DNA of 64,000 bases from Candidatus Falkowbacteria bacterium (GCA_963774955.1 CAVZGV010000003.1:386981-450980); one strand, 5' to 3'; positions 4,785 to 64,000 are shown, counted from the first letter of the stretch. Program-made: numbers and translations. Notes: generated by a model from the sequence alone, not told the origin.

Positions 4785-4859
4785 TGATATAATTTGTTTA
4801 ATGATTGGCTTAGAGTTCTAAGTCCACAGCCCTAAGTTCAATGCAAATAATTTATACTA

Positions 4860-5915
4860 ATGCTCTATAAAGAAAAATACAAACCTCTTAAATTTCCCCG
4901 CGACGAGCAAAAGCATGACCACATTATTGAATGGTGGTATTTTAACGGTAATTTAAAAAGTGAAGACGGCCGTTTGTTTTCCTATATGAACACTTTGTTT
5001 GCGACTAAGCCGAATCTGGTAAAAATTCCGTTTTTGAAAAATATTCCCTTAAAAACTTTGTTTTTCTCCCATTATTTATTAAGTGATAATAATAAACATA
5101 AATTCTGGGAAAAGGTTAACCCTCTATGTTTTTTGGATGCCAATAGTTTTACCAAACCGCTTTTATGGGCTGAATATGATAATTCCTGCTTGATTGAAGA
5201 ATACAAATTGTTTAATTTCCATATTACCAATGATTTTGTGGATCTAAATTTAAAAGCTATAAAAAAGCCTTTACTAATTAATAACAAGGGATTTATTGAC
5301 CTGGGTGTAAAAACAACTTATTATTATTCGTTGCCTCGTTTGCAGACCAGCGGTTTGATTAGGATTAATGATGAGTGGTTGTCAGTTAAAGGCTTAAGTT
5401 GGATGGACCATCAGTGGGCGCAGACTCCAATGACCAAGGATGACAAATGGACCTGGTTTTCTCTGCAATTAAATAATGGCTGGGATATAATGGCGGTAAT
5501 TTACGGTGATCAGGCTAAACTAGCCCATGCCAGCCTTATGGATAAGGGCAATAGGATCAAAACAACAAATAATGTTTTTTTAAAAAATTTACCGATTAAA
5601 TATGCCAGTAAAGAAACCGGCGCCGAATATCAGCTGGGCTATGAAATTTTCTTGCCTGACTGGAATCTCAAAGTTACAGCCAAACCCTATAATAAAGCTC
5701 AGGAAATGGTTTTCGGCACTATAAATTATTGGGAAGGCGGTCTGAAAATCGAAGGTAAAATAGGTGAAAAAAATATCAGCGGCCAGGGATTTTTGGAACT
5801 GGTCGGCAGCCCCATGAAAAAGAGCCTGATGCGGGTATATTTGAATAAATTTGAAAAAAACGGGTTTAAGGGCTGGAAAGCTGAGGTGCTTGACAAAATT
5901 AAAATATATAGGTAA
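4860..5915 (+). CDS. CrtC/AttH-like (hydroxyneurosporene-synthase-type lipocalin fold) protein
   Basis: N-terminal FPRDEQKHDHIIEWWYFNGNL motif is characteristic of the CrtC/AttH family. Assignment rests on this motif only. Confidence 0.45.
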   Translation: MLYKEKYKPLKFPRDEQKHDHIIEWWYFNGNLKSEDGRLFSYMNTLFATKPNLVKIPFLKNIPLKTLFFSHYLLSDNNKHKFWEKVNPLCFLDANSFTKPLLWAEYDNSCLIEEYKLFNFHITNDFVDLNLKAIKKPLLINNKGFIDLGVKTTYYYSLPRLQTSGLIRINDEWLSVKGLSWMDHQWAQTPMTKDDKWTWFSLQLNNGWDIMAVIYGDQAKLAHASLMDKGNRIKTTNNVFLKNLPIKYASKETGAEYQLGYEIFLPDWNLKVTAKPYNKAQEMVFGTINYWEGGLKIEGKIGEKNISGQGFLELVGSPMKKSLMRVYLNKFEKNGFKGWKAEVLDKIKIYR

Positions 5916-5944
5916 GTTAAGTTATTAAAGATTTATCGACTCAT

Positions 5945-7813
5945 ATGGCTATTAACCGCATAAAACTGAATAGCCAGTCACTTAAAAAGGAATTCGCTAA
6001 GGATTACCAGGATTTTTTTTCCAGATCAATGATTATCACCTCGGCTCCGGGGACCATAACCTGGGCTGGTGATTATGCGGTCATGGAGGGCGGATTTGCC
6101 ATTCTGCAAAAAATTCCCCTGAGAGTCTATATCGGTTTGGAACTTAATACTAATGACAAAACTGAAATCGGAGACTTTAAGTATTTTTCAAAGTCCAAGG
6201 GACAGTTTAAAAATTGCGAATTGGAACTGCCGGTAAAAAATAACCTGGTAAGATTTGTCGACCATTACCTGGAAGATGTGGAAAAGGATATTCATCTGAA
6301 AATAAATATTTTAAGTGAAGTATCTCCAGGCAGGGGACTTAATCTCTCGGGTGCCTTATCAGCCAGTTTAGCTTTGGCTTTGGAATTGTATTTCAAAAAA
6401 ATAAAAATCAAGGAGATGGAAAAATGGAAACAGACTGACTTGACCACTTTAACCAGAAAAATCGACCTTAAATTCGATCAGGTCTTTCGTTTGTCATGGA
6501 AGATGAACGCTATCTTTCACGGTAATGTCTCTTCGGGCGGTTCTTCATTTGCCCCATTTATTTATACGCCTTTTCCGGTGGTCTATTTTTCCGAAAAAAG
6601 AGCAGAAATAAACGATAAGGAGAATTTTTCTAATATTAGATTCCCCAAGTATTTGGACGGAGATTGGCGGGGGTATGAGCAGATATTTTATGGGGCCATT
6701 AAGTTTGAAGAATTATTTAATTATAAATCATTACCCAATTGGCCGATTGATTTCGGGGCAATATATTCCGGGGATGAAAGAATGACGGCGACAACACATG
6801 GAACGATCGGCGAAATCAGAGATATCCTGAAGACAACAACTGATTTGGTTAAGGAAGATTTCGCGCCTTATATGGCGAATTTGCCGGTAACTCCCTATTT
6901 TTATAAATTAGCGACCAAACACGGCTGGCGCGGACTGTGGAATATTTACGTGGATCCGACTATTGTTTCCAGTATGGAAGTCTTAAATGCTTTTCGTGAT
7001 TTATTTGAAAAAGGTTTGGCCGATAAATCAATTAAAAATCTTTTTGCCGCTTTGAACAGAATGTCTGCAATTTATCAGGTTTTGGAATTATCTTCGCCGT
7101 TATTCCAATATATTCAGAAATATCTTAATGATGATATGATAAGGTTGGGAGACCCTCACGGCGCGGCTACCAAGCCGTTGGGGTGCGGTAAAAAGGGGGA
7201 TTTGTTATTTGTTTTGCCTTATCATGGACTCCGCGATCAGATTGATAGGGTCATTAACGAGATGATTGAAGAAACCAAGGAACATATGTATCTGGATTAT
7301 GCTTCATGGTATGACGGTATTGAAGAGGAAGGGGCTAAACTCGAGCAATTTCTGGAAGGCAAAATATATTCTGAGTTTATTTCACGTGGGGCTGTTTTGA
7401 TCAAACATTTAAATTATAAAGGATTTATTCATAAAGATTTGTATACTCAGGAGGAGTTTCATAAAATGATACCCGACGCGGATTTACTGATGGATGAAAT
7501 CGACGGTAAAATTTATATTAAAGGTACACAACTGACATCTAAAGAATTGCATTCCGCAACGGCTACTATAAGTATTCTTAAGGAGCTAATTAATAAGCCG
7601 GGTGAAGCCGTGGCCAATGCTACTTTACCAATCAGTAGTTATACTCAGGACAGAAATGAACTGCAAAGCAAGATTATTACGCCCCTATGCAAAATTATCC
7701 AAAAGAATACTGGCCGTAAACTGTCATTTAAAATTAACGGCGGTATCACTAATTTCACCGTTAAATTGGGTAGCACAGGTGTGGATATCCTTTTGGTAAA
7801 AAGAATTTTTTAA
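5945..7813 (+). CDS. GHMP-kinase-family-like protein, unusually long (622 aa)
   Basis: N-terminal SAPGTITWAGDYAVMEGG resembles the GHMP APG…GEH motif. SPGRGLNLSGALSASLALAL resembles the PxGSGLGSSAA phosphate-binding loop. The C-terminal ~300 aa are unassigned. Confidence 0.45.
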   Translation: MAINRIKLNSQSLKKEFAKDYQDFFSRSMIITSAPGTITWAGDYAVMEGGFAILQKIPLRVYIGLELNTNDKTEIGDFKYFSKSKGQFKNCELELPVKNNLVRFVDHYLEDVEKDIHLKINILSEVSPGRGLNLSGALSASLALALELYFKKIKIKEMEKWKQTDLTTLTRKIDLKFDQVFRLSWKMNAIFHGNVSSGGSSFAPFIYTPFPVVYFSEKRAEINDKENFSNIRFPKYLDGDWRGYEQIFYGAIKFEELFNYKSLPNWPIDFGAIYSGDERMTATTHGTIGEIRDILKTTTDLVKEDFAPYMANLPVTPYFYKLATKHGWRGLWNIYVDPTIVSSMEVLNAFRDLFEKGLADKSIKNLFAALNRMSAIYQVLELSSPLFQYIQKYLNDDMIRLGDPHGAATKPLGCGKKGDLLFVLPYHGLRDQIDRVINEMIEETKEHMYLDYASWYDGIEEEGAKLEQFLEGKIYSEFISRGAVLIKHLNYKGFIHKDLYTQEEFHKMIPDADLLMDEIDGKIYIKGTQLTSKELHSATATISILKELINKPGEAVANATLPISSYTQDRNELQSKIITPLCKIIQKNTGRKLSFKINGGITNFTVKLGSTGVDILLVKRIF

Positions 7814-7840
7814 ACGTAAAATATAATAAGTTTTTGAAAA

Positions 7841-7866
7841 AACCGGGTTTTGTCCCGGTTTTTTCT
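7841..7866 (+). terminator. rho-independent terminator
   Basis: AACCGGGTTTTGTCCCGGTTTTTT. Confidence 0.65.
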
Positions 7867-8169
7867 TTTTGTGTCCTTAGACTGTATGGCTCCTGATGAT
7901 TTATGATCAAGGCAGAGAATCAAAAATAGATCTTTACAACCAAATATATTAAGAAGTTTGCAATCAGCCAGTTTAACCTTAAATTACTTTTTATCGGTCT
8001 ACTTATTATCATTTTCTTTGTTTTGATTTTAAAGGTCAATATTATATCGACCTATATGAACATACATAAATAAAATCAACAAAGGATATAAATAGATTGA
8101 TAACAATTAAGATAAACCGGCTGTTTCCAGATTTTTTGCTGATAAACAATGTAACAAGGAGGTCTTGTC

Positions 8170-8484
8170 ATGGCAACGGAAATTGTTATTTTATCGGTTC
8201 ATACTGAAGGCAATGACAGCTGGGAAACTCCCCATGCTCACTGTCCCAAACATGGGTCAAAAATTTATGCCCATGACGGAAGGGTTAACAAGATTACCTG
8301 CGATTTTTGCGGGTCTATCATTGTTTATGGGGGTTGCAGCAAATGTACCGGGAGTGTAAATCATCCTTTCTGTGACGAGTGCGGCCGAGATTTTTGCCCC
8401 AATTGTGCCGGCAGATCCAGGTTGGGCGGTTATAGCCCCGGTGGCGGTTTGTGTGCCAGTTTTTTGTGCAAGAAGTGCGGTTAG
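8170..8484 (+). CDS. small Cys-rich (multi-CxxC zinc-ribbon-like) protein
   Basis: RBS AAGGAGG. 104 aa with seven or more CxxC/CxxxC pairs (CPKHG…CDFCG…CSKCTG…CDECG…CPNCAG…CKKCG). Confidence 0.55.
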   Translation: MATEIVILSVHTEGNDSWETPHAHCPKHGSKIYAHDGRVNKITCDFCGSIIVYGGCSKCTGSVNHPFCDECGRDFCPNCAGRSRLGGYSPGGGLCASFLCKKCG

Positions 8485-8587
8485 AACTTATTGACTGAAA
8501 AAAAGGGGGTGGTAAAAACAAGTTAGTGTAAATTAGGCGGGTAATGCTTTTCTCCGAATAATCAAACTCAAAACAGGGAGGGGCAAA

Positions 8588-8797
8588 ATGCCTTGTATCA
8601 ATTGTCCTATGCTCGGCGGATCGAGTGGGGCGGATCTTTTCAACCGTGAAATGGATCGGCTGAGAGACCCGCTCAATTTTTCAGGATTGATGAATCGTAT
8701 TAACGATCCTACAGGGTTGCAACGTACAGGAAGTCTTTTTCGTTATCAACCTTCGACTGCGCTCTTGCGTGCATGGGAAGATGCGAAGAAGCCTTAA
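8588..8797 (+). CDS. hypothetical small protein
   Basis: RBS GGGAGGGG. 69 aa. Sits in a locally GC-richer patch. Confidence 0.35.
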   Translation: MPCINCPMLGGSSGADLFNREMDRLRDPLNFSGLMNRINDPTGLQRTGSLFRYQPSTALLRAWEDAKKP

Positions 8798-8860
8798 AGA
8801 CGCGTCGGTCCTTAACCAAACAACTTAACATCAAACAAAAAACAAAAAGGAGACTTCAAA

Positions 8861-9054
8861 TGAGCGGCATCGCACCCATCAACCCCGGCCAGACGTTCAA
8901 TATTTTCGAAAACGATCATCTCACGCAGATCCAGCATCATGAAACTTACGTGGATGTGGTCGACCATTTCGATCATGGCGATCTGGAGGTCGATTGCCAT
9001 CTGGTCCACAAGATTGACCGTCTCGGCAACATCGACCTCGACATCTTGCCGTAA
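8861..9054 (+). CDS. hypothetical small acidic His/Asp-rich protein
   Basis: RBS AAAGGAGA precedes ATG 8861. Preferred over the overlapping minus-strand ORF 8812-9117, which lacks an RBS. Confidence 0.35.
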
Positions 9055-9228
9055 GGCAAAACCAAAATCAGGGTTTTCAAAAAAACTCGTTGAATCAAAA
9101 AAATTCCGCGAGACCATGGATCCACAGGATCCATAAAGGGGTTGCTTAAAAAACAGCCCCTTTTCTATAAAATTTGCCTTATTAATATATTTATGTTAAA
9201 TTTCAGCATCAATCTCAAGGAGGCTAAA

Positions 9229-9870
9229 ATGACTGAAAAAGAACTGCTGGAGAAACTGGCCACTTTTTCGTTGATTGAAGAATTGAAGTACCTTTTTATT
9301 TACGGCAGCAACAGCGATCTGGAAGCCGATGACAAGGATATTGATTTACTGGCTGTTGTTAATAATCCCAGAGGATATCTTTATTACAAGGTTGAAAAGA
9401 CCGATCAGGTTGATTTAATCATTGTAAATGAGGATTACTTCCAGCGGGCTATCAGCAACTTCGAACCATTGGTGCTAGAACCGTTGCTTAAAGGCCGACT
9501 TTTGCGAAGTTTTGCTTCAGTAGAAGTGGATTTCAGACAAAAGATATGGCAGCAGGAATTTCACAAGAAAAATCTGGTTTATCTGACCAGCTTTGCCTTT
9601 ACCCTCCTGTGCTGGGCTTTTGAACGCTGGGACAAGAAGAACTATGAAGAATGCCTGATGAACCTGACCTATGTTTTTAGCTATGCAGCCATGGCTGAAA
9701 ATTTAAGCAAATACAAAGAACCGGTTTTTTACTGGCAACTTTTGGCTCATCCTGATTATGGCTGTCTGAGAAAAATCAGGGCGAGTTTGAAACTTAAACA
9801 GTTTGATCAGACAGAAGAATTGCTAAACGAAACTTTTGCCTGGTTAAAGGGTCAGCTGAGTAAATTATAA
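9229..9870 (+). CDS. nucleotidyltransferase-fold (MNT-like) domain protein
   Basis: RBS AAGGAGG precedes ATG 9229 (MTEKELL…). YGSNSDLEADDKDIDLLAVV fits the minimal nucleotidyltransferase GS…[DE]x[DE] motif. A helical C-terminal half follows. Confidence 0.5.
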   Translation: MTEKELLEKLATFSLIEELKYLFIYGSNSDLEADDKDIDLLAVVNNPRGYLYYKVEKTDQVDLIIVNEDYFQRAISNFEPLVLEPLLKGRLLRSFASVEVDFRQKIWQQEFHKKNLVYLTSFAFTLLCWAFERWDKKNYEECLMNLTYVFSYAAMAENLSKYKEPVFYWQLLAHPDYGCLRKIRASLKLKQFDQTEELLNETFAWLKGQLSKL

Positions 9871-9905
9871 GTTTAAGCCGTTCCGACATGTCGGAACGGC
9901 TTTTT
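9871..9905 (+). terminator. rho-independent terminator
   Basis: GCCGTTCCGACATGTCGGAACGGC followed by TTTTT. Immediately followed by the TTTTTGTCC x2 motif. Confidence 0.75.
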
Positions 9906-9976
9906 GTCCTTTTTTGTCCTTAGTCAGTTGCAGGGTAATTAAATTATGATAAAAGTATTATTATTAATCTAGTTTT

Positions 9977-12142
9977 ATGAAAAAATTAATTAGAGTTACA
10001 TTTTTTCTGGGGATCCTGGTGATTTTAGGTTTTAGTAGTCACAGTTCCTTTGCCGCTCAAAGCAATTTAACCTCCAGGGTTAAAGGCTATATTGTACTCA
10101 GCGTTGAAGAACACGGGGAAGCATATTATGTTGATCCCGTAACTTTAAAAGCGTATTACATGCAAAGTCCTGACAAGGCTTTTGAAATAATGAGAACTTT
10201 CGGCTTGGGGATTACTGATGAAAATTTGGCAAAAATTCCTTTGGCTGGAACTAGTCAAACAGGGGATTGGCAATTACGTAATAAATTAGCCGGGCGGATA
10301 TTATTACAGGTGCAAAAAAACGGGGAAGCCTGGTATGTCTACCCTGGCGATTTAAAAAGATATTATTTGGGTAGCCCGTTTGGAGCCTTTAATTTAATGA
10401 GAGCAAAAGGTTTGGGTATTTCCCACACTGATTTGTCTGATTTAACTGTTTGGAATGTTACAAATCCCATTAAATATAGTAACTCAGTGGAGACCATGAA
10501 AATGCTGACCGCCAAGGCAATTGAAAGTAGATATATAAGCTATACTTTGTCAGGTGACTATGAGAAATATGCTGAAAATAAATATTATGCCTATGGCGGA
10601 CTTGATTTAACATTTTATTGTCCACCACCACAAAGCTCTTTTCCTAATGCTTATTTGATTACTGGATATGGCGCTAGTGTGCCGTATGAGTGGGAACCAA
10701 TCAATCCCGTAGCGACCTATTGGCAATCGGTAAACAAGCTTTCTATGGTAGCCTATTCTCAGGATTTTACCATGGTCTGTCAAAAAAATGATGGTAGTTT
10801 GTATAAGAAAACTATTACTATCACCGAAAAAACAAGACCGCTTAGCACTCTTACTCAGTCAAAAGAAAATATTTGGGATTTTACCAAATGGCATGATGAA
10901 TCATCCGGCCCAGGTTTGGACAGCGGCTTAGCAGAGACTTATTATGACGGTACAGGAAAAAAAGTCATTAAATTAAATTCCATGAAAGGTGGTAATTATT
11001 ATATGGAAAAGTCATATTATTTAACGGTTGATAACAGTAGTGACCTGAATAATATTGTCAGTTGGGATTGGAAACAAGATTCGATTGATTCTCCTTACGG
11101 TTATGTCGGGGTGTATATTCAGTTTATGAATGCCCAAAAATTTACTAACCGCAGTACAGAATCATCTTATGTTCTTGGTACATATGATCTGTTTCGCCAT
11201 ACCGGTGATTTCTACAAATATAGCTGTGACAATCGCTATGCCGAATCAACTTTAGGCCCCAGTAAATATAACTGCAATGAGGAAATCGGAGCCAAAGACA
11301 GCTGGCAAAATGTGCAGTTAAATCTTCAGAATATCCTAAACAATAAGCTTTATGGGGTAGCCAAAGATCAGATTAAAGCTGTAAAAATAAAAATTGTATC
11401 ATACAATAATGCAGGCAGCGGTGCTGTGGCGTATTGGCGTGATTTTCAGATTAATTCAACCTCAGCCGGGACTTTGCAATCTGCTGACTATTTCAAGTTA
11501 AGCCCATATAATTTTAGCGTTAAAAAAGGCGGCGATCTTATTACTACCGACGGCGAGTATGTTAGCCCGTGGGATGGTAACTATTCATTTGGTTATAACG
11601 GTGATTATCTTTTCAAAGGAGTTAATTCAAAGCCTGCGGAAGGGTGTAATATACGTAAGTTTATTTATAATTTTCAGGATTTTGAAAATAAAACCGTGGA
11701 AATTACTTTTAAACGAAGTGCTTATGGGGCTTTGGATTTTTCTTTACAAAACGAGGCCGGTCAGTTTGTAGATTTTGACAGCGATTCAAATGATGTGCCG
11801 TCTAATCTGGTTCGGGCCTGTAATAATTATTTTAAATGTGATTATACCTGTAATGATTATGCCGGCGGCTGGATAGGCAGTGAATATGACTGGGGTCAGC
11901 TGACCAATGACAATCAGTGGCATACTTTATCAATCAGTAAATTTCCGGATAAATTTATTTTTAACCTCGATAATGGTAAAAAGATTAAAGAGGTTAGCTC
12001 AGTCTTCGGCTGTAATTTGGCCGGTAATGTCAGGGGGATGGATTATTCCGGCCAAGTCAGTTTAATGGTTAGCGGCTGGAGCTGTAAATGGAAAAGCGAT
12101 GATTTGAATTATGAAGTCAAGGAAATTAAAATAAGCCGATAA
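9977..12142 (+). CDS. large secreted protein with two ~50-aa 'ILLQVxxxGEAWYVYPxxxxRYYL…GLGI' repeats
   Basis: Signal peptide MKKLIRVTFFLGILVILGFSSHSSFAAQ. Repeats at ~aa 35-90 and 105-160. The same repeat pair occurs in ORF 29443-30405. Confidence 0.6.
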   Translation: MKKLIRVTFFLGILVILGFSSHSSFAAQSNLTSRVKGYIVLSVEEHGEAYYVDPVTLKAYYMQSPDKAFEIMRTFGLGITDENLAKIPLAGTSQTGDWQLRNKLAGRILLQVQKNGEAWYVYPGDLKRYYLGSPFGAFNLMRAKGLGISHTDLSDLTVWNVTNPIKYSNSVETMKMLTAKAIESRYISYTLSGDYEKYAENKYYAYGGLDLTFYCPPPQSSFPNAYLITGYGASVPYEWEPINPVATYWQSVNKLSMVAYSQDFTMVCQKNDGSLYKKTITITEKTRPLSTLTQSKENIWDFTKWHDESSGPGLDSGLAETYYDGTGKKVIKLNSMKGGNYYMEKSYYLTVDNSSDLNNIVSWDWKQDSIDSPYGYVGVYIQFMNAQKFTNRSTESSYVLGTYDLFRHTGDFYKYSCDNRYAESTLGPSKYNCNEEIGAKDSWQNVQLNLQNILNNKLYGVAKDQIKAVKIKIVSYNNAGSGAVAYWRDFQINSTSAGTLQSADYFKLSPYNFSVKKGGDLITTDGEYVSPWDGNYSFGYNGDYLFKGVNSKPAEGCNIRKFIYNFQDFENKTVEITFKRSAYGALDFSLQNEAGQFVDFDSDSNDVPSNLVRACNNYFKCDYTCNDYAGGWIGSEYDWGQLTNDNQWHTLSISKFPDKFIFNLDNGKKIKEVSSVFGCNLAGNVRGMDYSGQVSLMVSGWSCKWKSDDLNYEVKEIKISR

Positions 12143-42189: not shown

Positions 42190-42259
42190 AGATGCGCGCT
42201 TTTTTATATCTAGATTTCAATTGACTTGTCTGCTCTTTGGCTGTAAAATTAGAGTAAAT

Positions 42260-43264
42260 ATGACCAAACAAACCGAAAAATTCAATAAAGGCGAAATCAT
42301 CATTTATCAGCCCAAAACCGGCGGGCCCAGGTTTGAGGTTGAGTTAGAAAAAGAATCAGTATGGCTAACCCAAGATCAAATGGCTCATTTGTTTGATAAA
42401 GGAAGATCTACAATTACTGAACATATTAATAATGTATTCAGAGAGAAAGAATTAAATGAAAAGTCAGTATGTCGGTATTTCCGACGTACTGGTTCTGATG
42501 GCAAAGTATACGAGGTTAAATATTATAATCTTGATGTAATTATATCTGTTGGTTATCGTGTGAAATCTAAACGAGGTACCGACTTCCGCATTTGGGCTAC
42601 TAATGTTCTTAGGACTCACTTAATCAAAGGTTATACTTTGAATCAAAAGCGTCTTAGAGAGACTCAATTAACAGATTTGGAACAGGCAGTGGCTCTGGTT
42701 AAAAATGCCTTGGAAACTAAAAAGCTCAAAGGCGCAGAAGCTAAGGGTTTGCTTGAAGTTATCACCAAATACGCTCAATCCTGGTTATTATTGCAAAAAT
42801 ACGATGAAGATAAATTGGTTTTGCCGGTTAAGCAGGCCAAACCCAAATATGAATTGGATTATAATCAGGCGATTAGTGCAATTTCTGATTTAAAGAACAA
42901 TCTGCTGGCCCAAAAGCAGGCTACTGATATATTTGGCAATGAAAGGGGGGAGGCATTAGCCGGGATTATCGGCAATCTTTACCAGACTTTTGGCGGTAAG
43001 GTCTTATATCCGTCAATTGAAGCCAAGGCTGCTCATCTGCTTTATTTCATCATCAAGGATCATCCGTTTAGCGATGGCAACAAGCGCATCGGCTCGTTTT
43101 TGTTTATCGTATTTTTGAGCAGAAATAATTATTTGCTGGATAAAAAGGGAGAGAGTAAGATAAATGATAATGCCTTGGTTGCTTTAGCTTTACTGATCGC
43201 CGCCAGCGACCCCAAACAAAAAGATGTCTTGGTCAAGCTGGTTATGAACTTTTTGACAAACTAA
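42260..43264 (+). CDS. RhuM-family protein with a C-terminal Fic/Doc domain
   Basis: RhuM N-terminal signature …VWLTQDQMAHLF…TITEHINNVF…YNLDVIISVGYRVKS…FRIWATNVL. Fic motif HPFSDGNKRIG (HPFx[DE]GNxR). Confidence 0.7.
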   Translation: MTKQTEKFNKGEIIIYQPKTGGPRFEVELEKESVWLTQDQMAHLFDKGRSTITEHINNVFREKELNEKSVCRYFRRTGSDGKVYEVKYYNLDVIISVGYRVKSKRGTDFRIWATNVLRTHLIKGYTLNQKRLRETQLTDLEQAVALVKNALETKKLKGAEAKGLLEVITKYAQSWLLLQKYDEDKLVLPVKQAKPKYELDYNQAISAISDLKNNLLAQKQATDIFGNERGEALAGIIGNLYQTFGGKVLYPSIEAKAAHLLYFIIKDHPFSDGNKRIGSFLFIVFLSRNNYLLDKKGESKINDNALVALALLIAASDPKQKDVLVKLVMNFLTN

Positions 43265-43417
43265 AAATTCCGCAAACGGAGCTAAGCTCCGAAGCGTCGG
43301 AGCTTAGCTCCGTCTTTCCCACTAACCAATAACCCCGCCCTCTACTTGCCCTCCGTAGCAATAGCGGAAAATGGGCGAAGGCAAGTAATCCCGCTACGCG
43401 GGAAAACTCTTAAATAT

Positions 43418-44095
43418 ATGGAAAAACAATTAATCATAAAATTACATAAAAATTTTGAAGATTGCGCTCATGAAAACGATGGGGTCGAATTTTGGTATGC
43501 TCGGGAATTGCAGTCTCTTTTAGGCTATGATCGTTGGGAAAATTTTGCCAATGCTGTAGAAAAAGCTAAAATTGCCTGTAAAAATTCTAAACAAAGCCTG
43601 TTAGACCATTTTCGTGACGTTACGAAGATGGTTAATATTGGTTCAGGCGCGAAAAAGGAGGTATCTGATATTATGTTGACCCGTTACGCCTGTTATCTTA
43701 TTGCGCAAAATGGCGACCCGAGAAAAGATGAAATAGCTTTTGCCATGACATATTTTGCGGTCCAGACCAGGAAGCAGGAACTTGTGGAACAGCGAATTGA
43801 AGCCTGGGAAAGATTGCAGGCCAGAGAAAAGCTATCATTATCTGAAAAGGAGTTGTCAGGAGTTTTATTTGAACGGGGAGTCGATGGCGTGGGATTTGCC
43901 AGAATTCGCAGCAAAGGCGACACGGCTTTATTTGGCGGCTATAATACTCAAGAGATGAAAAGCAAGCTTGGCGTATCAGAAAAAAGGCCTCTGGCTGATT
44001 TTCTGCCCAGAATAACCATCAAGGCCAAGGATTTAGCTAACGAGATAACGAGTTTCAATGTACACCACACACCATTCACCAAACCAACATCCTAA
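43418..44095 (+). CDS. DinD-like (DNA-damage-inducible protein D family) protein
   Basis: ATG 43418 (MEKQLII…). …GVEFWYARELQSLLGYDRWENFANAVEKAKIACKNS…DHF… matches the DinD-family core. Confidence 0.5.
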   Translation: MEKQLIIKLHKNFEDCAHENDGVEFWYARELQSLLGYDRWENFANAVEKAKIACKNSKQSLLDHFRDVTKMVNIGSGAKKEVSDIMLTRYACYLIAQNGDPRKDEIAFAMTYFAVQTRKQELVEQRIEAWERLQAREKLSLSEKELSGVLFERGVDGVGFARIRSKGDTALFGGYNTQEMKSKLGVSEKRPLADFLPRITIKAKDLANEITSFNVHHTPFTKPTS

Positions 44096-52295: not shown

Positions 52296-52320
52296 AAAAT
52301 CTCATCTAAAATATTTTTTA
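52296..52320. repeat. REP-like intergenic motif AAAAATCTCATCTAAAATATTTTTTA (copy 1)
   Basis: Variants at 54369-54395, 54714-54740, 55689-55715, 59652-59688 (CCCCTAAGGGG variant), 60718-60745 and 62154-62181. Always sits between a stop and the next start. Confidence 0.6.
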
Positions 52321-52336
52321 AAATAACTAAAAATCT

Positions 52337-54065: not shown

Positions 54066-54365
54066 ATGATAAAAGCTATCAGTATGAATGATGAGGGCAG
54101 GGTTAAGAATTTTATTCAAAGCAACCATTGGATTTTCGCTAAAACTTATGCTAAGACTGCTCCTCACGAATATGTCTGTCGGGATTATCTTGATGACTCA
54201 ATGAAAAATGAATTTGTTTGGTTTGTTGAATTTATCAGAAAAAACGGAAACCCGGAAAAGTTTTTCAATTCAGAATATATTTATTTTCCTATCGACGGAT
54301 ATAAATACTGGACTATGGGTAATCCAATTGACGAAACTACTATTATAAATAGAGCGATTGTTTAA
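54066..54365 (+). CDS. hypothetical small protein
   Basis: 99 aa. Flanked on both sides by the REP-like motif. Confidence 0.4.
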   Translation: MIKAISMNDEGRVKNFIQSNHWIFAKTYAKTAPHEYVCRDYLDDSMKNEFVWFVEFIRKNGNPEKFFNSEYIYFPIDGYKYWTMGNPIDETTIINRAIV

Positions 54366-54397
54366 AATAAAAATCACATCTAAAATATTTTTTAGAT

Positions 54398-55340: not shown

Positions 55341-55395
55341 GGTTTGACGTATTTAAAATAATTTTAAAGATAAAAATCTGCCTTTTCATGTTATT

Positions 55396-55714
55396 TTTCA
55401 TTGAAAGAGAATGATGATTTTGGCCAATCGGAAGGTAGAGACACGGTTAACCGTGTCTCTACAGAACGTAAATTCGGTTCAGTCCCGCCAAAATCATTGT
55501 CATCAATTGTTAATACATTTAAAGGCGGCGTAACCCGTCGTTGTCATGAAAATAAATTGGATTTCAAATGGCAATCAAATTATCACGAACATATCATCCG
55601 CGACGAGGACGATTATGCCCGGATCTGCGAATATATCCGCTGTAACCCGGGTAAATGGTCTGAAGATCGAAATAATCCTTTAAATATAAAAAATCTCATC
55701 TAAAATATTTTTTA
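55396..55714 (+). mobile_element. 5'-truncated copy of the IS200/RAYT-type HuH transposase gene, about 99% identical to the 3' ~320 nt of copy 61600-62181
   Basis: Encodes …DFGQSEGRDTVNRVSTERKF…WQSNYHEHIIRDEDDYARI… (catalytic-Tyr region) but lacks the HVH motif. Ends in the REP-like motif. Confidence 0.6.
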
Positions 55715-55754
55715 AAATTTCAGTCAGCTATTTTAGGTCTGTTGATAAAAAATT

Positions 55755-55795
55755 TGACACTATATTTAAGTGTGGTATAATAATACCACACCTTT
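55755..55795 (+). promoter_or_regulatory. strong sigma70 promoter with an operator-like inverted repeat overlapping -10
   Basis: TTGACA, 16-nt spacer, TATAAT. GTGTGGTA…TACCACAC 8-bp inverted arms span the -10 box. Directly upstream of the XRE-family gene. Confidence 0.55.
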
Positions 55796-55815
55796 AATTT
55801 ATAAAAAAAATCGCT

Positions 55816-56196
55816 ATGCCAAACGCTAATTTAAAAAAATTCGGCGAGCTTTTGAAAGCTTTAAGAATGAAGCAGGATTTAAGCTTGCGGGACGTATGCA
55901 AAAAGGTTAATTATGACCCCAGCAACTGGAGCAAGATTGAAAGAGGTATGATTTCTCCGCCCAGCGAGGAGGTTGTTTTAGGCCAATGGGCATTGGCCTT
56001 AGGTCTGGCCAAAGAGAGCAAAGAGTATTATGAATTTATTGATTTGGCCAATATTGCCCAGGGCATTATTCCGGATTACATTATGCAGGAAAAAGACTTG
56101 GTCAGAGCTTTGCCGGCTTTTTTCAGGACGGTTAGAAATGAAAAACCGACCAAAAAAGAGATTGACGATTTAATCAATCTGATTAAGAATAATTAG
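55816..56196 (+). CDS. XRE-family HTH transcriptional regulator
   Basis: LKALRMKQDLSLRDVCKKVNYDPSNWSKIERG (HTH_3). Confidence 0.65.
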   Translation: MPNANLKKFGELLKALRMKQDLSLRDVCKKVNYDPSNWSKIERGMISPPSEEVVLGQWALALGLAKESKEYYEFIDLANIAQGIIPDYIMQEKDLVRALPAFFRTVRNEKPTKKEIDDLINLIKNN

Positions 56197-56203
56197 GAAA
56201 TTA

Positions 56204-56779
56204 ATGCAAACACCTTATTTCAAAAATCAGGAGCTTAAGCACAAAGCTGATGAGTTCAGAATTAAGCATTGGGGCAATGATGTGCCGGTAGATATTGAGC
56301 AGATTATTGAAGTTAAGCTGGGTATGGATATTATTCCGGTTCCCGGTTTATATAAACAATGCAATACCGATGCTTTGATTTCTTCGGACTGGAAGACGAT
56401 TTATGTGGATAATGATAATTATATTGATGACAGATGTTATAACCGCATTCGTTTCTCTTTGGCGCATGAAATCGGCCATTTTATTTTGCATCAGGAGCTT
56501 TATGCATCTTTTGGCATTATGAGCGTTGAGGATTTTTATAATATAATTGATGGGTTAAATAATGATTATGGGATAATTGAAGGCCATGCCAATCGCTTTG
56601 CCAATTTTTTGCTGGTACCGAGAGAAAAATTGGAAATTGAAAAGGTCAAAGCCTTGCAAGCCCACCCCGAAATAAAGGAATTGGAAGCTGCAACTGTAAA
56701 TTCCTACATTGCTATTCCCTTAAGTAAAATATTTGAGGTTAATGAAGGAGTCGTGGAAATTAGCCTAAATAACAAATAA
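56204..56779 (+). CDS. ImmA/IrrE-family metallopeptidase
   Basis: HExxH in SLAHEIGHFILH. Immediately downstream of the XRE gene, the classic ImmR/ImmA arrangement. Confidence 0.65.
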   Translation: MQTPYFKNQELKHKADEFRIKHWGNDVPVDIEQIIEVKLGMDIIPVPGLYKQCNTDALISSDWKTIYVDNDNYIDDRCYNRIRFSLAHEIGHFILHQELYASFGIMSVEDFYNIIDGLNNDYGIIEGHANRFANFLLVPREKLEIEKVKALQAHPEIKELEAATVNSYIAIPLSKIFEVNEGVVEISLNNK

Positions 56780-56802
56780 AGAGTTTATTTTAAAATACCC
56801 CT

Positions 56803-57553
56803 ATGACCCAATACTATAACCCCAACCGCGCCCCAGACTGGAACTATGGCGGGAAAAATTGGAAACTGTCACGATCAAAAATTGACCTTTTTGTAGAGTG
56901 TCCCAGATGTTTTTATGTTGATAATAAACTTGGCACCAAACGACCACCAGGATTTCCGTTTAATATAAATTCAGCAGTTGATAAATTATTGAAGCAAGAA
57001 TTTGATGTTCATCGCTCCAATGGCACTCAGCACCCATTGCAAAAAAAATATAAAATTGACGCAGTACCTGCCCCGCATGAAAGCATTGATATTTGGCGGG
57101 ATAATTTTAAAGGCGTTTCAATATTTGCATAAAGCTACCGGCATGACCATCTCCGGCGCGATTGATGATCTTTGGATTAATTCAAAGGGCGAATATATGG
57201 TGGTTGATTATAAAGCCACTGCAAAGGAAGAGGCCGTGACAGAACTTGATCAGGAATGGCAAGATGGTTATAAACGCCAAATGGAAGTTTATCAGTGGTT
57301 ATTGCGTAAAAATAAATTAAAAGTCTCTAATACCGGCTATTTTGTTTATTGTACCGGCCGTACAGACGTTGAGGCATTTGACGGTAAAATAGAATTTAAT
57401 GTAAATGTGATTCCTTATACAGGTTCTGATAAATGGGTTGAAAAAACCATTAAAGAAACTCATAAATGTTTGGAAAATAATAAAATCCCTTCTTCAGGCG
57501 CTGATTGTGATTATTGTAAATATGTGGATGCGAGGAATAAGTATGTTAAGTAG
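56803..57553 (+). pseudogene. Cas4/RecB-like PD-(D/E)xK nuclease with Cys cluster, split by a frameshift (ORFs 56803-57132 and 57002-57553)
   Basis: N-terminal …FVECPRCFYVD. Core IDDLWINSKGEYMVVDYK (D…E.K) plus QMEVYQWLL (QxxxY). C-terminal C-x12-CDYC. The two ORFs overlap in different frames; the frame switch falls between ~57060 and 57130, downstream of an A8 run at ~57043. Confidence 0.45.
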
Positions 57554-57629
57554 AAATCTCATCCCCAAAGCCAATCCCAATTGCGCTTATTGCAATTATC
57601 GGTCAGAGGCAAGGGAAGTGGAGGAATAA
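57543..57629 (+). CDS. candidate 28-aa Cys-containing peptide (MLSRNLIPKANPNCAYCNYRSEAREVEE)
   Basis: ATG preceded by GAGGAATAAGT. Overlaps the stop of the Cas4-like gene. Lies ~40 nt upstream of the rSAM/SPASM gene. Contains CAYC. Confidence 0.25.
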   Translation: MLSRNLIPKANPNCAYCNYRSEAREVEE

Positions 57630-57667
57630 AAATTTTATTTAAAATATTTTCAAAACAATTTTTTAAG

Positions 57668-59653
57668 ATGAATAATGATGATCCAAAATTAAAATTTCTC
57701 TCGCTAGAACTCTCGCCCGAATGCGACCAGAACTGTAAGCATTGTTATGCTAATTCATTGAAGTCTCAGGTTGAAAATATACTTACCTTTGAACAATGGC
57801 TTGACGTTATTAAGGCTGCTAAAAAAATAGGTTGTGAAGAAATACGCTTAACCGGTGGGGAGCCAACACTTAGTCCTTATTTTTTTAAAATAATAAAAGC
57901 CGCTCATCAAATAGGTCTTAAAATTGGCTTTAATACTCACGGCGTTCTTAGTAATGCAATTTTGGCTAAAATAGTCAGCGCTGCGCCTGAGAGGATTTTT
58001 ATCAGTTTTGAGGGCTCGCCAAAGACTGATGCGGAAATAAGGGGCAAGAAACATTTTCAGCGGGCGTTTAATAGTGCAAAGTTTTTAAAACAGGCGGGGC
58101 TTGAGGTGTTGATGAATGTACATTTAAGAAAGAGTAATTATCGAGAAATTGAAAAGTTGTCCAAAATAGCGGTTGAAAATAATTTTATTCTCAAATTGCC
58201 ATTTCTTCGTCCAATTGGGCGAGCCGCAGAATGCCTGACTGAAGAAATATTAAATCCAGATCAAACCTTGGTTGTTGCTAAGGAAACAGAAAGAGTTAAA
58301 ATTAAATATCCTGCTTTAAAAATAACAAGCGATTACCAACTGCTAGGTGATGTTCAGCAGCATATGCTGAATCATTGTCCTGCCGGGATAGTTTCTATCC
58401 ATATTAATCCTGATGGCACTGCTTTCCCCTGTGGTTTTATGAGAGCAGATGATTTTAAGTTGGGAAATATTAAAAAAATTTCTTTGAAACAAATTTGGTT
58501 TAAATCGCCACTGTTAATTAAAATGAGAAAGGTTACGGGGGCACCAAAATGTCAGCATTGTGAATATTTTAAAAGTAAATGTTCTGGACCTGCTAGATGC
58601 TTTTCTTATTACCTTAATGGTAAGTTATTCAGCGATGATCCAATTTGTTTTGCCAAAAGTAAGAGTGAAGAAATTGGACTTGAATTTTTAAAGAAGAAAG
58701 TAGGCAGGTTGCCCAAAAAAGAAAGGGAATTATTTAATAAAATATTTGATTTGAAAATAGATAAATCTGAAAAAGGGGATAACATTATAAGTTTAAGAAA
58801 CAAAATTGAAATGACTCAAGGGATTTATAATGTAGCTTCAAGACAGGGGAGACCCATTGATCCTGTAAAGTTAAAAAAAATCAGAAAACTTTGTGACCAG
58901 GTATCTGATTGTAAGATTTGTAAAAAAGGCCGGGGGAAACAGCAGTTTTTAGATGCTTTGCCCGGAGCTTATACCAAACATCATAAGGTTTTGTTTTTTG
59001 ACAAACACAATCCCACCAATATAACGCCATCATTGGTTACTGCTTGTTTAAAGGCATCCGTTTGCTGGTCTCAAAAAGAAGCTTTTCAAAAGAAGAAATA
59101 TTATCCTTATATATTTTGGAATACGTTAATCGGGTCTGAAATCCATGGCCATGCGCATTTGATTTTAGCGGAAGATCTGCAATTTGCTGAAGTTGAAGAT
59201 CTTTCAATCAAAGCCAAATCGTTTGGTGAAATTAAAGGCAAGAATTATTGGGAATCTTTATTTAAAGCCCATTTATTAGTCGGTTTGGCAAAACAAGTAG
59301 GGCGATTTAAATATTTTATGAATCTTGTCCCTAAATCGTCAAGGGAAATTTTTATCTTTGGCAAAACCGGCTTGGATGAAATGGCAATAACTAGTTTATC
59401 GCTGCTAGTTTCAAAAATTTGTCAGAATTGGATTAATCGAACACCCTTTAGGGTGCCGGCGCTAAGTATTTTTATAAGTTATCCTTTGCCCCAGAAAGTA
59501 AACAAGGACAAATTAACTATTGTCCGAATTGTTGATAGAAGATATCCGTTATTGGGAAAGACTGACAGAGGTACGGTTGAAGAATTTGCTTTTAAGGTTG
59601 TGACACATGATCCCTTTGAGGAATGGAAACAATTAGAAAAAACGCTTAAATAA
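57668..59653 (+). CDS. radical SAM/SPASM-domain protein fused to a C-terminal HIT-like (His-triad) domain
   Basis: ATG 57668 (MNNDDPK…). CDQNCKHC (CxxxCxxC), LTGGEPTL. SPASM Cys pattern CPAGIVSIHINPDGTAFPCGF…CQHCEYFKSKCSG…C. C-terminal …GSEIHGHAHLIL (HxHxHxx). Confidence 0.6.
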   Translation: MNNDDPKLKFLSLELSPECDQNCKHCYANSLKSQVENILTFEQWLDVIKAAKKIGCEEIRLTGGEPTLSPYFFKIIKAAHQIGLKIGFNTHGVLSNAILAKIVSAAPERIFISFEGSPKTDAEIRGKKHFQRAFNSAKFLKQAGLEVLMNVHLRKSNYREIEKLSKIAVENNFILKLPFLRPIGRAAECLTEEILNPDQTLVVAKETERVKIKYPALKITSDYQLLGDVQQHMLNHCPAGIVSIHINPDGTAFPCGFMRADDFKLGNIKKISLKQIWFKSPLLIKMRKVTGAPKCQHCEYFKSKCSGPARCFSYYLNGKLFSDDPICFAKSKSEEIGLEFLKKKVGRLPKKERELFNKIFDLKIDKSEKGDNIISLRNKIEMTQGIYNVASRQGRPIDPVKLKKIRKLCDQVSDCKICKKGRGKQQFLDALPGAYTKHHKVLFFDKHNPTNITPSLVTACLKASVCWSQKEAFQKKKYYPYIFWNTLIGSEIHGHAHLILAEDLQFAEVEDLSIKAKSFGEIKGKNYWESLFKAHLLVGLAKQVGRFKYFMNLVPKSSREIFIFGKTGLDEMAITSLSLLVSKICQNWINRTPFRVPALSIFISYPLPQKVNKDKLTIVRIVDRRYPLLGKTDRGTVEEFAFKVVTHDPFEEWKQLEKTLK

Positions 59654-60366: not shown

Positions 60367-60745
60367 TTGATGCTTGAAATTTGGGATTTCAATATCATGC
60401 CCAATCATGTACACGTTGTTTTTTTATTGAAAGAGAATAATGATTTTGGCCAATCGGACGGTAGAGACACGGTTAACCGTGTCTCTACAGAACGTAAATT
60501 CGGTTCAGTCCCGCCAAAATCATTGTCATCAATTGTTAATACATTTAAAGGCGGCGTAACCCGTCGTTGTCATGAAAATAAATTGGATTTCCAATGGCAA
60601 TCAAATTATTACGAACATATCATCCGTGATGAAGACGATTATGCCCGCATTAAGGAATACATTTTCTGTAATCCCGGCAAATGGGCAGAAGACCGCAATA
60701 ATCCCATTAATATTAAATAAAAATCTTATCTGAAATATTTTTAAA
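60367..60745 (+). mobile_element. diverged, 5'-truncated copy of the IS200/RAYT-type transposase gene
   Basis: Retains MPNHVHVVF (HuH) and …WQSNYYEHIIRDEDDYARI. Lacks the first ~70 codons. Ends in a variant REP-like motif. Confidence 0.55.
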
Positions 60746-60777
60746 TATTATAACGTGAAATTATGTTGAATAAGACT

Positions 60778-61581
60778 ATGTCCAGCGAAGCGGAATCCCG
60801 CGTCTCGGGAAAAAAACTCGGATTGATCATATTGCCAATGTTGATCTTAATTATTTCAGGTTGCAGTCTGCCTTGGCAGGCGCCGCAACAGGTTGGCTGC
60901 GACCTGGACGCCAAACTTTGTCCGGATGGATCAGCTGTCGGCCGTAGCGGACCAAACTGCGAGTTTGCGGCTTGCCCGCAGATTGATATCAACCCTGCGA
61001 TTACTGATTTTAATTCCTGTTCCGCGGCCGGTTATCCGATTATGGAAAGTTATCCCCGACAATGCCGGGCTAATGGCCGGACTTATACGGAAAGATTGAT
61101 TGATAATAACAGCTCTAGTTGCACGATTAGTCCTAATTGCCAGCTGCCAATGGATTATGCGGTTCGTTCTAATTGTCCATACCAAGCTTATTGTTATAAT
61201 CAAAAATGCGTAGTCGGCTGTCCGTTATGGGATGAACCAACAAATTCTTGGGAGGTAAAATGTTCGGTTGATAAAGATTGTAATTGTGCTGCCTGGAATG
61301 AACAGGAAAATTATACTTGCGCTTGTGTGGACGGCCAATGCGCTTCTATTGTCTCCGGTCCAAGTTCTGAACAACCTGGTCCGGCCGCAGGCGATTATGC
61401 TGCTGATTGTCTCAAAAACAATGGTAATTGGCTGGAACAATATCGTGAGTGTGAATATAGCAGCCAAACCTGGTGTGATCAGGCTGGCGGTGTGTTTAAA
61501 GAATGTGAATCAGCTTGCCGCCATGATCCGCAGGCACAAATGTGCACCTTGCAATGCGTGCCCGTGTGCCAGTTGAAATAA
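60778..61581 (+). CDS. secreted Cys-rich lipoprotein
   Basis: ATG 60778 (MSSEAE…LILIISGCSLP). More than 30 Cys. Confidence 0.5.
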   Translation: MSSEAESRVSGKKLGLIILPMLILIISGCSLPWQAPQQVGCDLDAKLCPDGSAVGRSGPNCEFAACPQIDINPAITDFNSCSAAGYPIMESYPRQCRANGRTYTERLIDNNSSSCTISPNCQLPMDYAVRSNCPYQAYCYNQKCVVGCPLWDEPTNSWEVKCSVDKDCNCAAWNEQENYTCACVDGQCASIVSGPSSEQPGPAAGDYAADCLKNNGNWLEQYRECEYSSQTWCDQAGGVFKECESACRHDPQAQMCTLQCVPVCQLK

Positions 61582-61599: not shown

Positions 61600-62181
61600 A
61601 TGGATCGTGAATATTTTAAAAATCAATACCGTACCTCAACCAATCGGTTAAATTGTTGGGATTATAATTTGGCGGCAAAGTATTTTGTGACCATTTGCAC
61701 CCATGACCGCCAATGTTGCCTCGGTGAAGTCAAGAACGACAAGGTTATTTTGTTGGAGATTGGGAAGATGGTTTTTGAGGATTTGATGAATATACCCAAA
61801 TTACGCCCATATGTGTTGGTGGATGATTATGTCATCATGCCGAATCATGTACACATTGTTTTTTTATTGAAAGAGAATAATGATTTTGGCCAATCGGACG
61901 GTAGAGACACGGTTAACCGTGTCTCTACAGAACGTAAATTCGGTTCAGTCCCGCCAAAATCATTGTCATCAATTGTTAATACATTTAAAGGCGGCGTAAC
62001 CCGTCGTTGTCATGAAAATAAATTGGATTTCAAATGGCAATCAAATTATCACGAACATATCATCCGCGACGAGGACGATTATGCCCGGATCTGCGAATAT
62101 ATCCGCTGTAACCCGGGTAAATGGTCTGAAGATCGAAATAATCCTTTAAATATAAAAAATCTCATCTAAAATATTTTTTAA
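61600..62181 (+). mobile_element. tnpA: intact IS200/IS605-family (RAYT-like, Y1 HuH) transposase gene (CDS 61600-62169) plus 3' REP-like motif
   Basis: 189 aa with HuH motif MPNHVHIVF and catalytic-Tyr region WQSNYHEHIIRDEDDYARICEYIRCNPGKW. Contains a perfect 28-bp palindrome GTAGAGACACGGTTAACCGTGTCTCTAC (61901-61928). Confidence 0.7.
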
Positions 62182-63885: not shown

Positions 63886-63948
63886 AATCTTTAACCGCTT
63901 AGGCCATCAGGCTTAGGCGGTTTTATAATTCAGCTGATTTTGTATTGA

Positions 63949-64000
63949 AAGAGCATGATGATTTTGGCCAACCGGAAGGTAGAGACACGGTTAACCGTGT
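63949..64000 (+). mobile_element. start of a further 5'-truncated IS200/RAYT-type copy (runs off the window)
   Basis: TTGAAAGAGCATGATGATTTTGGCCAACCGGAAGGTAGAGACACGGTTAACCGTGT begins at the same internal breakpoint as copy 55396. Confidence 0.5.

Follow-up and report, generated by a model that had tools for sequence, protein, structure and literature searches.

A radical SAM/SPASM enzyme fused to a predicted GalT-type nucleotidyl-transferase domain in a mosaic island of a Candidatus Falkowbacteria genome

Radical S-adenosylmethionine (SAM) enzymes of the SPASM subfamily, including MftC, PqqE, anSME, CteB and SuiB as well as AhbD/NirJ, share a CX3CX2C motif, a GGE motif, a seven-cysteine SPASM region and an overall fold. 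Within the histidine triad (HIT) superfamily, the GalT branch, represented by the galactose-1-phosphate uridylyltransferase GalT, the Arabidopsis ADP-glucose phosphorylase At5g18200, the yeast Ap4A phosphorylase Apa2 and DUF4931, is marked by HxHx(Q/H) and by a CxxC motif with an accompanying histidine. Enzymes of this branch act via a covalent histidine–nucleoside monophosphate (His-NMP) intermediate. Here we describe a gene from Candidatus Falkowbacteria bacterium whose product carries the hallmarks of both groups on one polypeptide. The gene lies in a stretch of 64,000 nt, read on one strand (GCA_963774955.1 CAVZGV010000003.1:386981-450980), which we refer to as the window; the study region spans positions 55,755–59,653. 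The fusion gene and its parts are as follows.

57668–59653, plus strand: fusion gene, an uninterrupted open reading frame (ORF) of 661 aa encoding a radical SAM/SPASM enzyme, a ~10-residue linker and a predicted GalT-type double-HIT domain
57707–58159, plus strand: radical SAM core, residues 14–164, with CX3CX2C at 57722–57745 and GGEPTL at 57854–57871
58376–58648, plus strand: SPASM domain with seven cysteines and a PF13186 match, cysteine pattern CX12GX4C ... CX2CX6CX5C ... C
58700–59650, plus strand: predicted GalT-type domain (HIT branch III), residues 345–661, with HGHAH at 59144–59158 (H493/H495/H497), CxxC (C415/C418) and DRRYPLLG at 59534–59557

The N-terminal half belongs to the radical SAM superfamily and to its SPASM subfamily. 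PF04055 (Radical_SAM) matches residues 14–164 with 77.1 bits against a cut-off of 29.5, and PF13186 (SPASM) matches residues 237–299 with 41.3 bits against a cut-off of 21.5. The CX3CX2C motif is formed by C19, C23 and C26 (CDQNCKHC), and GGEPTL occupies residues 63–68, with GGE at 63–65. Both motifs, together with the SPASM cysteine pattern, had been pointed out in a preliminary description of the locus made from the DNA sequence alone, and all are present in the ORF. The SPASM cysteines are C237, C255, C295, C298, C305, C311 and C327; their spacing is slightly non-canonical compared with CX9-15GX4C ... CX2CX5CX3C ... C. From this seven-cysteine pattern, one SAM cluster and two auxiliary Fe-S clusters are predicted. 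A structural model of this half reached a predicted local distance difference test score (pLDDT) of 81.8 and a predicted template-modelling score (pTM) of 0.83.

None of the named radical SAM/SPASM equivalogs in NCBIfam was reached at its cut-off. The best match was MftC, with 123.8 bits against 265, and the matches below cut-off also include NirJ2, AhbD, PqqE, WgkB and StsB; overall, the fusion scores 2- to 5-fold under every cut-off. Unlike these equivalogs, it has neither a partner peptide nor a recognition element (RRE) of the kind associated with ribosomally synthesized and post-translationally modified peptides (RiPPs): PF05402 (RRE/PqqD-like) has no match in the fusion, whose radical SAM core begins at residue ~10, or among the neighbouring genes, although some distant homologues do carry this domain. 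A further difference from the known SPASM enzymes is the C-terminal nucleotidyl-transferase domain, which is unprecedented in the searches made.

Viperins of the pVip type resemble the fusion in their radical SAM core and possibly in having a nucleotide substrate and a defence-island location. They lack a SPASM domain, which the fusion has, and carry a C-terminal NTP-binding extension of their own. The fusion does match the PADLOC pVip profiles, but only at positions 6–151 of 257, which correspond to the radical SAM core, and we rejected viperin membership on this basis. No viperin was present among the best 25 of the 72 NCBIfam matches.

The C-terminal half was far less readily assigned. Residues 345–661 alone gave no match in Pfam, NCBIfam, PHROG, PADLOC or the PDB sequences, and the HIT family was revealed only by an exhaustive search of cluster representatives combined with profile and structure comparison. 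Using phmmer against 1.84 billion representatives, we retrieved 179 proteins at E ≤ 1e-3, including 54 at E ≤ 1e-10. Only the fusion itself has a radical SAM half, and nearly all of the others are standalone proteins of ~350–380 aa. Those that carry a name are listed as 'hypothetical protein' from Chloroflexota, Dehalococcoidia, Thermomicrobiales and a Methanomicrobiaceae archaeon. Eight full-length standalone relatives had no Pfam or NCBIfam match either, the curated GalT and DUF4921/DUF4931 families remaining unmatched.

To describe conserved positions we use alignment A1, which comprises 40 HIT-domain sequences including the fusion, with residues numbered along the full-length fusion protein. 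W484, H493, H495, R624 and P649 are invariant. The family motif HGHxQ is a GalT-type histidine triad, for which the fusion carries HGHAH (493–497), with a histidine where most members have glutamine; the GalT-branch signature HxHxQ thus corresponds to H493-G-H495-A-H497, its first two histidines being those conserved in all 40 sequences. C415 and C418 form a CxxC motif that, judged by the alignment, occupies the GalT zinc-site positions together with a conserved histidine. Searched against PDB sequences, the A1 profile matched the HIT protein 1y23 (E 3e-4), the Arabidopsis ADP-glucose phosphorylase 1z84 (E 4e-4), and also GalT and Apa2, in matches spanning E values from 3e-4 to 0.3. An AlphaFold2 model built from A1 has a pLDDT of 90 and a pTM of 0.91 and adopts a double-HIT fold; its top 21 Foldseek matches in the PDB all belong to the GalT branch of the HIT superfamily.

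The profile and the structural matches agree, so the HIT-like assignment first made from the string IHGHAHLIL is correct and can be refined to the GalT branch. The C-terminal ~320 aa are, by this modelling, a complete double-HIT nucleotidyl-transferase/phosphorylase domain of the GalT/ADP-glucose-phosphorylase/Apa2 branch. Alignment with GalT and ADP-glucose phosphorylase points to H495 as the putative site of covalent nucleotidylation. The domain differs from the solved structures of the branch in its sequence identity of only 11–18%, in having HGHAH instead of HxHxQ, and in being fused to a radical SAM enzyme.

We found no second protein with a radical SAM/SPASM and GalT-like HIT architecture among ~15 billion proteins searched, which leaves the fusion a singleton. 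A word-indexed search with the full-length protein returned the query itself and matches to the radical SAM half, at no more than 54% query coverage. Scans of JGI metagenome contigs, IMG/VR, and plasmid and phage collections gave no further fusion and no close relative, and literature searches returned nothing relevant on the combination. The architecture, already described as unfamiliar when the locus was first read, is to judge from these searches new, with both of its domains drawn from well-known superfamilies. The HIT half aligns to standalone proteins over nearly their entire length, beginning close to their N-terminus, and the junction lies ~10 residues past the last SPASM cysteine. The gene thus joins two complete proteins end to end.

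Given its singleton status, we considered whether the ORF might be an accidental chimera, or one in decay, among the remains of recombination. Its surroundings would fit such an origin: they contain a frameshifted nuclease gene, the relic of a gene 3' end, a Bro-N gene that is cut short and three incomplete copies of a transposase gene, all described below. The ORF itself does not look like debris, with 661 codons open in DNA of 35% GC, cofactor and catalytic motifs intact in both halves, good model confidence for both, and a junction placed precisely between two full-length proteins. Moreover, an identical 661-aa protein occurs in three assemblies, namely the 565-kb source contig and short contigs from two independent read-run assemblies, so the fusion is not a one-off assembly error. 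We consider a non-functional chimera very unlikely.

Evidence on a pairing of the two domains came from relatives of the HIT domain. This domain falls together with a small clade, made up of the six cluster representatives P0045, P0047, P0048, P0053, P0055 and P0085, with which it shares a 3-residue deletion before GS..HxH. The clade motif is DRGWP[LM]LG, of which the fusion has the diverged form DRRYPLLG, and a midpoint-rooted neighbour-joining tree places the fusion as sister to P0045/47/48/85. We retrieved the loci of P0045 and P0048; P0047 and P0085, which lie on long contigs of 9 kb and 30 kb, respectively, were left out. In both retrieved loci, the HIT gene is the last gene of a radical SAM/SPASM operon. 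The P0045 locus (L016) encodes, in overlapping genes, a radical SAM/SPASM protein, a 265-aa protein and the HIT protein. The P0048 locus, found in two samples (L017/L018), runs from a B12-binding radical SAM gene through three radical SAM/SPASM genes and a fifth radical SAM gene to the HIT gene, the operon in L017 occupying 4019–11050 of GCA_029976205.1, JARPNY010000646.1. None of the L016 or L017 operon proteins attains any curated NCBIfam cut-off. In the vicinity of the L017 operon we noted a SIR2_2 gene along with genes for an RtcR-like sigma-54 activator, an RHS toxin and a DDE transposase.

The order of the two activities in these operons, radical SAM genes followed by HIT, is that of the fusion, and the same HIT clade is involved. 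The best match that we found for the radical SAM half of the fusion is a 364-aa protein of the L017 operon, rSPASM_364 (28% identity over 329 aa, 177 bits, E 3e-53); the L016 radical SAM/SPASM protein matches with 26% identity and 132 bits, and a final SPASM 'DPxCF' is common to the fusion and the radical SAM/SPASM proteins of both loci. Unlike the fusion, the operons encode separate proteins, with up to five radical SAM genes, one of them B12-dependent, and are found in high-GC hosts (60–65%), their proteins being only 24–28% identical to it.

The main HIT family presents another picture. In seven of its loci, representing five distinct contexts, no radical SAM/SPASM gene adjoins the HIT gene and the surroundings are of a housekeeping type. 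Several of these HIT genes neighbour GlgC-like or glycogen-synthase-like genes, which hints at an ADP-glucose-phosphorylase-like housekeeping role for the main standalone family; in L001, L003/L004 and L005, on Chloroflexota-type and archaeal contigs, the neighbours are GlgC-like NTP-transferase or GT5 glycogen-synthase-like genes.

That the clade HIT genes close radical SAM/SPASM operons in both retrieved loci supports a real functional pairing. We conclude from these gene arrangements that radical SAM/SPASM and GalT-like HIT enzymes form a recurrent partnership, of which the window protein would be the fused form; on the same evidence, the pairing would be ancestral rather than accidental. 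The fusion thus acted as a Rosetta stone, leading to a GalT-like clade whose genes, in both retrieved loci, stand at the end of operons with as many as five radical SAM genes.

In our proposal, to which we give about an even chance, the fusion is a bifunctional enzyme with a nucleotide-linked substrate, belongs to a radical SAM plus GalT-like HIT pathway and entered its mosaic island as a cassette. Such an enzyme would have arisen by end-to-end fusion of two complete proteins, and its two halves would act consecutively on one nucleotide-linked substrate. Because GalT-branch enzymes use a covalent His-NMP, a shared substrate of this kind is the most economical inference. Through the His-NMP adduct, the HIT half would add an NMP to a phosphorylated intermediate, swap it or take it off, while the radical SAM half would abstract a hydrogen from the same molecule, with the nucleotide serving as a handle. 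Candidate substrate classes are a sugar-nucleotide, a nucleotide, and a nucleotidylated peptide or lipid. Several observations weigh against this proposal. The operon link consists of two independent loci and the fusion; identity to the operon radical SAM proteins is just 26–28%; and the neighbour-joining placement of the fusion sits on a long branch. The closest solved structures to the radical SAM half are peptide-modifying SPASM enzymes, which do not imply a small-molecule substrate. Finally, the fusion is a singleton, much of its surroundings is gene debris, and it may conceivably have lost its function. For enzymologists, the fusion nonetheless offers a compact single protein in which to ask what a nucleotidyl-transferase adds to radical SAM chemistry.

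A different substrate was suggested by a short ORF directly upstream of the fusion gene, which overlaps the end of a nuclease gene.

56803–57553, plus strand: PD-(D/E)XK nuclease gene, PF12705; 249 codons after removal of one extra T at ~57118
57543–57629, plus strand: 28-codon ORF, the remnant (last ~27 codons) of a second PD-(D/E)XK nuclease gene copy

The preliminary description proposed that this ORF, preceded by a ribosome-binding site and encoding a cysteine peptide, may supply the substrate or leader of a radical SAM/SPASM maturase. The ORF exists where it was placed: it overlaps the upstream stop codon by 11 nt; an AGGA precedes its ATG by 6 nt, and 38 nt separate its end from the ATG of the radical SAM gene. 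Its translation, LSRNLIPKANPNCAYCNYRSEAREVEE, is similar to how the upstream nuclease ends (…NNKIPSSGADCDYCKYVDARNKYVK), and the nuclease homologue in L008 ends in ...IPASGSSCDWCAYASARKGVEE before its stop (also given as …EIPASGSSCDWCAYASARKGVEE before the stop), like the product of the 28-codon ORF. A hidden Markov model (HMM) of the last 32 residues of 120 nuclease homologues matched the 28-aa product with 31.5 bits (E 1e-8), compared with 10.4 bits for the best of 2000 shuffles, and the alignment runs through to the terminal residue of the HMM (...VEE, then the stop). The cysteine peptide is therefore refuted as a precursor or leader and is instead the fossil 3' end of a second nuclease gene copy. 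It is also not conserved next to homologues, nothing comparable to such a small ORF or precursor peptide being present in L016 or L017. The case illustrates that the remnant of a gene's 3' end may be mistaken for a precursor peptide.

More generally, the fusion might be a RiPP or protein-modifying maturase whose radical SAM/SPASM half cross-links or otherwise modifies a peptide, the 28-aa cysteine peptide being one version of this idea. MftC, PqqE, WgkB and StsB are among the best NCBIfam matches, operons with multiple radical SAM genes such as that of L017 are typical of RiPP clusters, and the 28-codon ORF has its AGGA and two cysteines. Those NCBIfam scores are, however, all far under their cut-offs, the N-terminal RRE/PqqD-like domain is missing, and the peptide is accounted for as a nuclease relic. 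Upstream of the L017 operon we saw only high-GC noise ORFs and no convincing small ORF. In addition, we know of no role for a HIT domain in RiPP maturation. Taken together, we regard a peptide maturase as quite unlikely.

The upstream nuclease had been described as a Cas4/RecB-like protein split into two frames. The split is real and is caused by a 1-nt frameshift at ~57118 (GTT-T-CAA), where the tblastn alignment switches frame between ...FKGV and QYLHK..., but the protein is a member of a common Patescibacteria PD-(D/E)XK family. TIGR00372 (cas4) scored 33.4 bits against a cut-off of 65, and no CRISPR-like repeat array was detected in the window. At least 8000 scored candidate homologues were all significant; among the 120 matches listed, identity is 68–82%, almost all are 248–256 aa long (~249), and the sources, where named, are Patescibacteria, Parcubacteria, Woesebacteria and Uhrbacteria. 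By these counts the family is very common in Patescibacteria, where it is also well conserved, and its distribution places the host in this lineage as well. Of the homologues in three other genomes, two follow restriction-modification (RM) genes and one lies among housekeeping genes, and at none of these three loci is there an XRE/ImmA pair upstream or a radical SAM gene downstream. With the cas4 score under cut-off, no array and RM or housekeeping neighbours, a Cas4/CRISPR identity was rejected. The nuclease, a PD-(D/E)XK/Fe-S protein, may represent a conserved anchor beside a variable island. At the housekeeping-type locus (L008–L013 set), LexA and DNA ligase genes lie nearby, and a LexA gene is also found 10 kb upstream in the window.

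Further upstream is a regulatory gene pair.

55740–56779, plus strand: XRE/ImmA cassette, with promoter 55754–55781, palindrome 55770–55791, XRE gene 55816–56196 and ImmA-like gene 56204–56779

The XRE protein matches HTH_31, and the ImmA-like protein matches Peptidase_M78 with HEIGH at residue 88. The promoter is of the sigma-70 type, agrees at 12 of 12 positions and has an extended TG; a perfect 9-4-9 palindrome, GTGTGGTAT-AATA-ATACCACAC, lies over its -10 element. In CapH/CapP and ImmR/ImmA pairs, as here, a helix-turn-helix repressor gene is followed by the gene of an HExxH metallopeptidase, with an autoregulatory palindrome over the -10 element. CapP consists of a Zn-peptidase, a linker and, at the C-terminal end, a GAF domain, and it cleaves the helix-turn-helix repressor CapH, whereas the window peptidase, at 191 aa, is too short for a GAF domain and matches the CapP profile at positions 3–120 of 242 only (E 6e-17); XRE matches CapH with E 2e-4. 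The cassette also differs from those pairs in moving independently of the fusion gene. In L014, from a Candidatus Parcubacteria metagenome-assembled genome, the same promoter, operator and genes recur with ~89% nucleotide identity. Homology begins at ~55740 and ends at the ImmA stop, beyond which are a terminator-like hairpin and unrelated genes, with neither the nuclease nor the radical SAM gene present. XRE/ImmA is thus an autonomous ~1-kb cassette, separate from the fusion. All of the elements noted earlier (the repressor, the palindrome over its -10 and the ImmA peptidase) are in place, but not their control of one joint module. Read-through from the XRE promoter into the fusion gene is possible, as the genes are co-directional and the scan listed no plus-strand terminator-like site downstream of the operator hairpin before the fusion stop. 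In L014, XRE/ImmA (7615–8579) lies downstream of an 869-aa PDC-S06-type ATPase (4563–7172, PADLOC E 3e-126), and the cassette may travel with different defence candidates.

The XRE/ImmA cassette, the nuclease gene and the fusion gene all lie in a low-GC island that extends from ~45 kb to ~60.4 kb, with a GC content of 28–37% compared with ~36–52% elsewhere in the window. Besides several 3' copies of an IS200-like transposase gene, detailed below, it has genes for LexA, the methyltransferase and S subunit of a type I system, a trypsin-like PDC-S45 protein, GmrSD, SNase+LTD and a truncated Bro-N/PDC-S13 protein. The flanks reported earlier (GmrSD, RM, SNase and transposon copies) are thereby confirmed, and the defence island is real; as evidence on the fusion it is circumstantial, amounting to guilt by association.

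We weighed on this ground whether the fusion is an antiviral effector that makes a modified nucleotide, as viperin does, and is induced from the XRE promoter once DNA damage or infection has led ImmA to cleave XRE. The type I RM, GmrSD, SNase+LTD, PDC-S45-like protease and Bro-N/PDC-S13 genes of the island speak for this, as do the common direction of all genes from the XRE promoter to the fusion, the lack of a listed plus-strand terminator-like site between the ImmA and fusion stops, the PADLOC capP and capH matches of ImmA and XRE, and the position of the L014 cassette next to a PDC-S06 candidate defence ATPase. The HIT half has a nucleotide-handling fold, and SIR2_2, RHS and transposase genes lie near the L017 operon. 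All of this is association only. Beyond the generic radical SAM core of pVip, none of the defence family models matches the fusion, and viperins have no SPASM domain. XRE/ImmA is found elsewhere without the fusion gene, the L016 and L017 operons have no XRE/ImmA, ImmA has no CapP-type GAF domain, and the phage, plasmid and viral-contig collections hold no relative of the fusion. An induced antiviral effector is accordingly unlikely in our assessment, and the bifunctional pathway enzyme remains our preferred reading.

A more speculative extension would combine the two ideas: the fusion would be the minimal single-polypeptide form of a pathway also found as radical SAM operons with a HIT gene, and its island product a phage-blocking modified nucleotide or conjugate. 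We rate this a long shot. If true, it would constitute a second, viperin-independent radical SAM route to antiviral nucleotides, in which a GalT-like enzyme adds or removes the nucleotide handle on a substrate reworked by radical SAM/SPASM enzymes. For the search for defence systems, the fusion adds a specific though unproven candidate from a group, the Patescibacteria, that has been little explored.

The XRE, ImmA, nuclease, peptide and radical SAM elements were originally read as a single module. They are better described as a mosaic of independent pieces, and several repeats lie in and around them.

57554–57566, plus strand: left copy of the 13-nt direct repeat AAATCTCATCCCC, directly after the nuclease stop codon
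59654–59666, plus strand: right copy of AAATCTCATCCCC, directly after the fusion stop codon and running into the CCCCTAAGGGG hairpin
55394–55693, 60420–60719, 61860–62159 and 63929–64000: copies of the transposase 3' part, the only full-length gene being 61600–62169
52297–52321, 54371–54395, 55691–55715, 60721–60745 and 62157–62181: copies of the 25-nt sequence AAATCTCATCTAAAATATTTTTTAA
59790–60236, plus strand: truncated Bro-N gene, PF02498; PADLOC PDC-S13 positions 1–145 of 286, phrog_15286 positions 4–146 of 274

The two AAATCTCATCCCC copies bracket the relic and the fusion gene as a 2.1-kb unit and may reflect the duplication of an insertion site or the core of a recombination event. They extend to 13 nt two of the six window copies of the 10-mer AAATCTCATC, all of which lie on the plus strand, compared with 0.28 copies expected; this junction motif is absent from all 18 fetched loci. 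By these repeats the island looks like the product of cassette-wise assembly, and the fusion gene would have arrived as a 2.1-kb cassette in a mosaic low-GC Patescibacteria island.

The other repeats derive from a mobile element. A 300-nt 3' part of an IS200-like (HUH/Y1) transposase gene is present in four copies that are 85–99% identical, each holding an internal perfect palindrome, GAGACACGGTTAACCGTGTCTC. AAATCTCATCTAAAATATTTTTTAA, which recurs five times with 0–3 mismatches (0 expected), comprises the last codons and trailer of the IS200-like transposase unit. Two solo copies directly follow the S subunit gene and the ORF 54066–54365, and AAATCTCATCTAAAATATTTTTTAA looks like a cassette-junction scar or the right end of the transposon. 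An Rfam scan of the window returned no riboswitch or other RNA family, and no tRNA genes were found, hence no tRNA attachment site.

Downstream of the fusion gene, the Bro-N gene has apparently been cut short by the transposase fragment at ~60.4 kb. Between two of the transposase copies, 60763–61581 encodes a cysteine-rich protein of 272 aa that has a hydrophobic segment at its N-terminus and matches no family. A second Bro-N gene lies at 43346–44095 and is preceded by a RhuM/Fic gene at 42221–43264.

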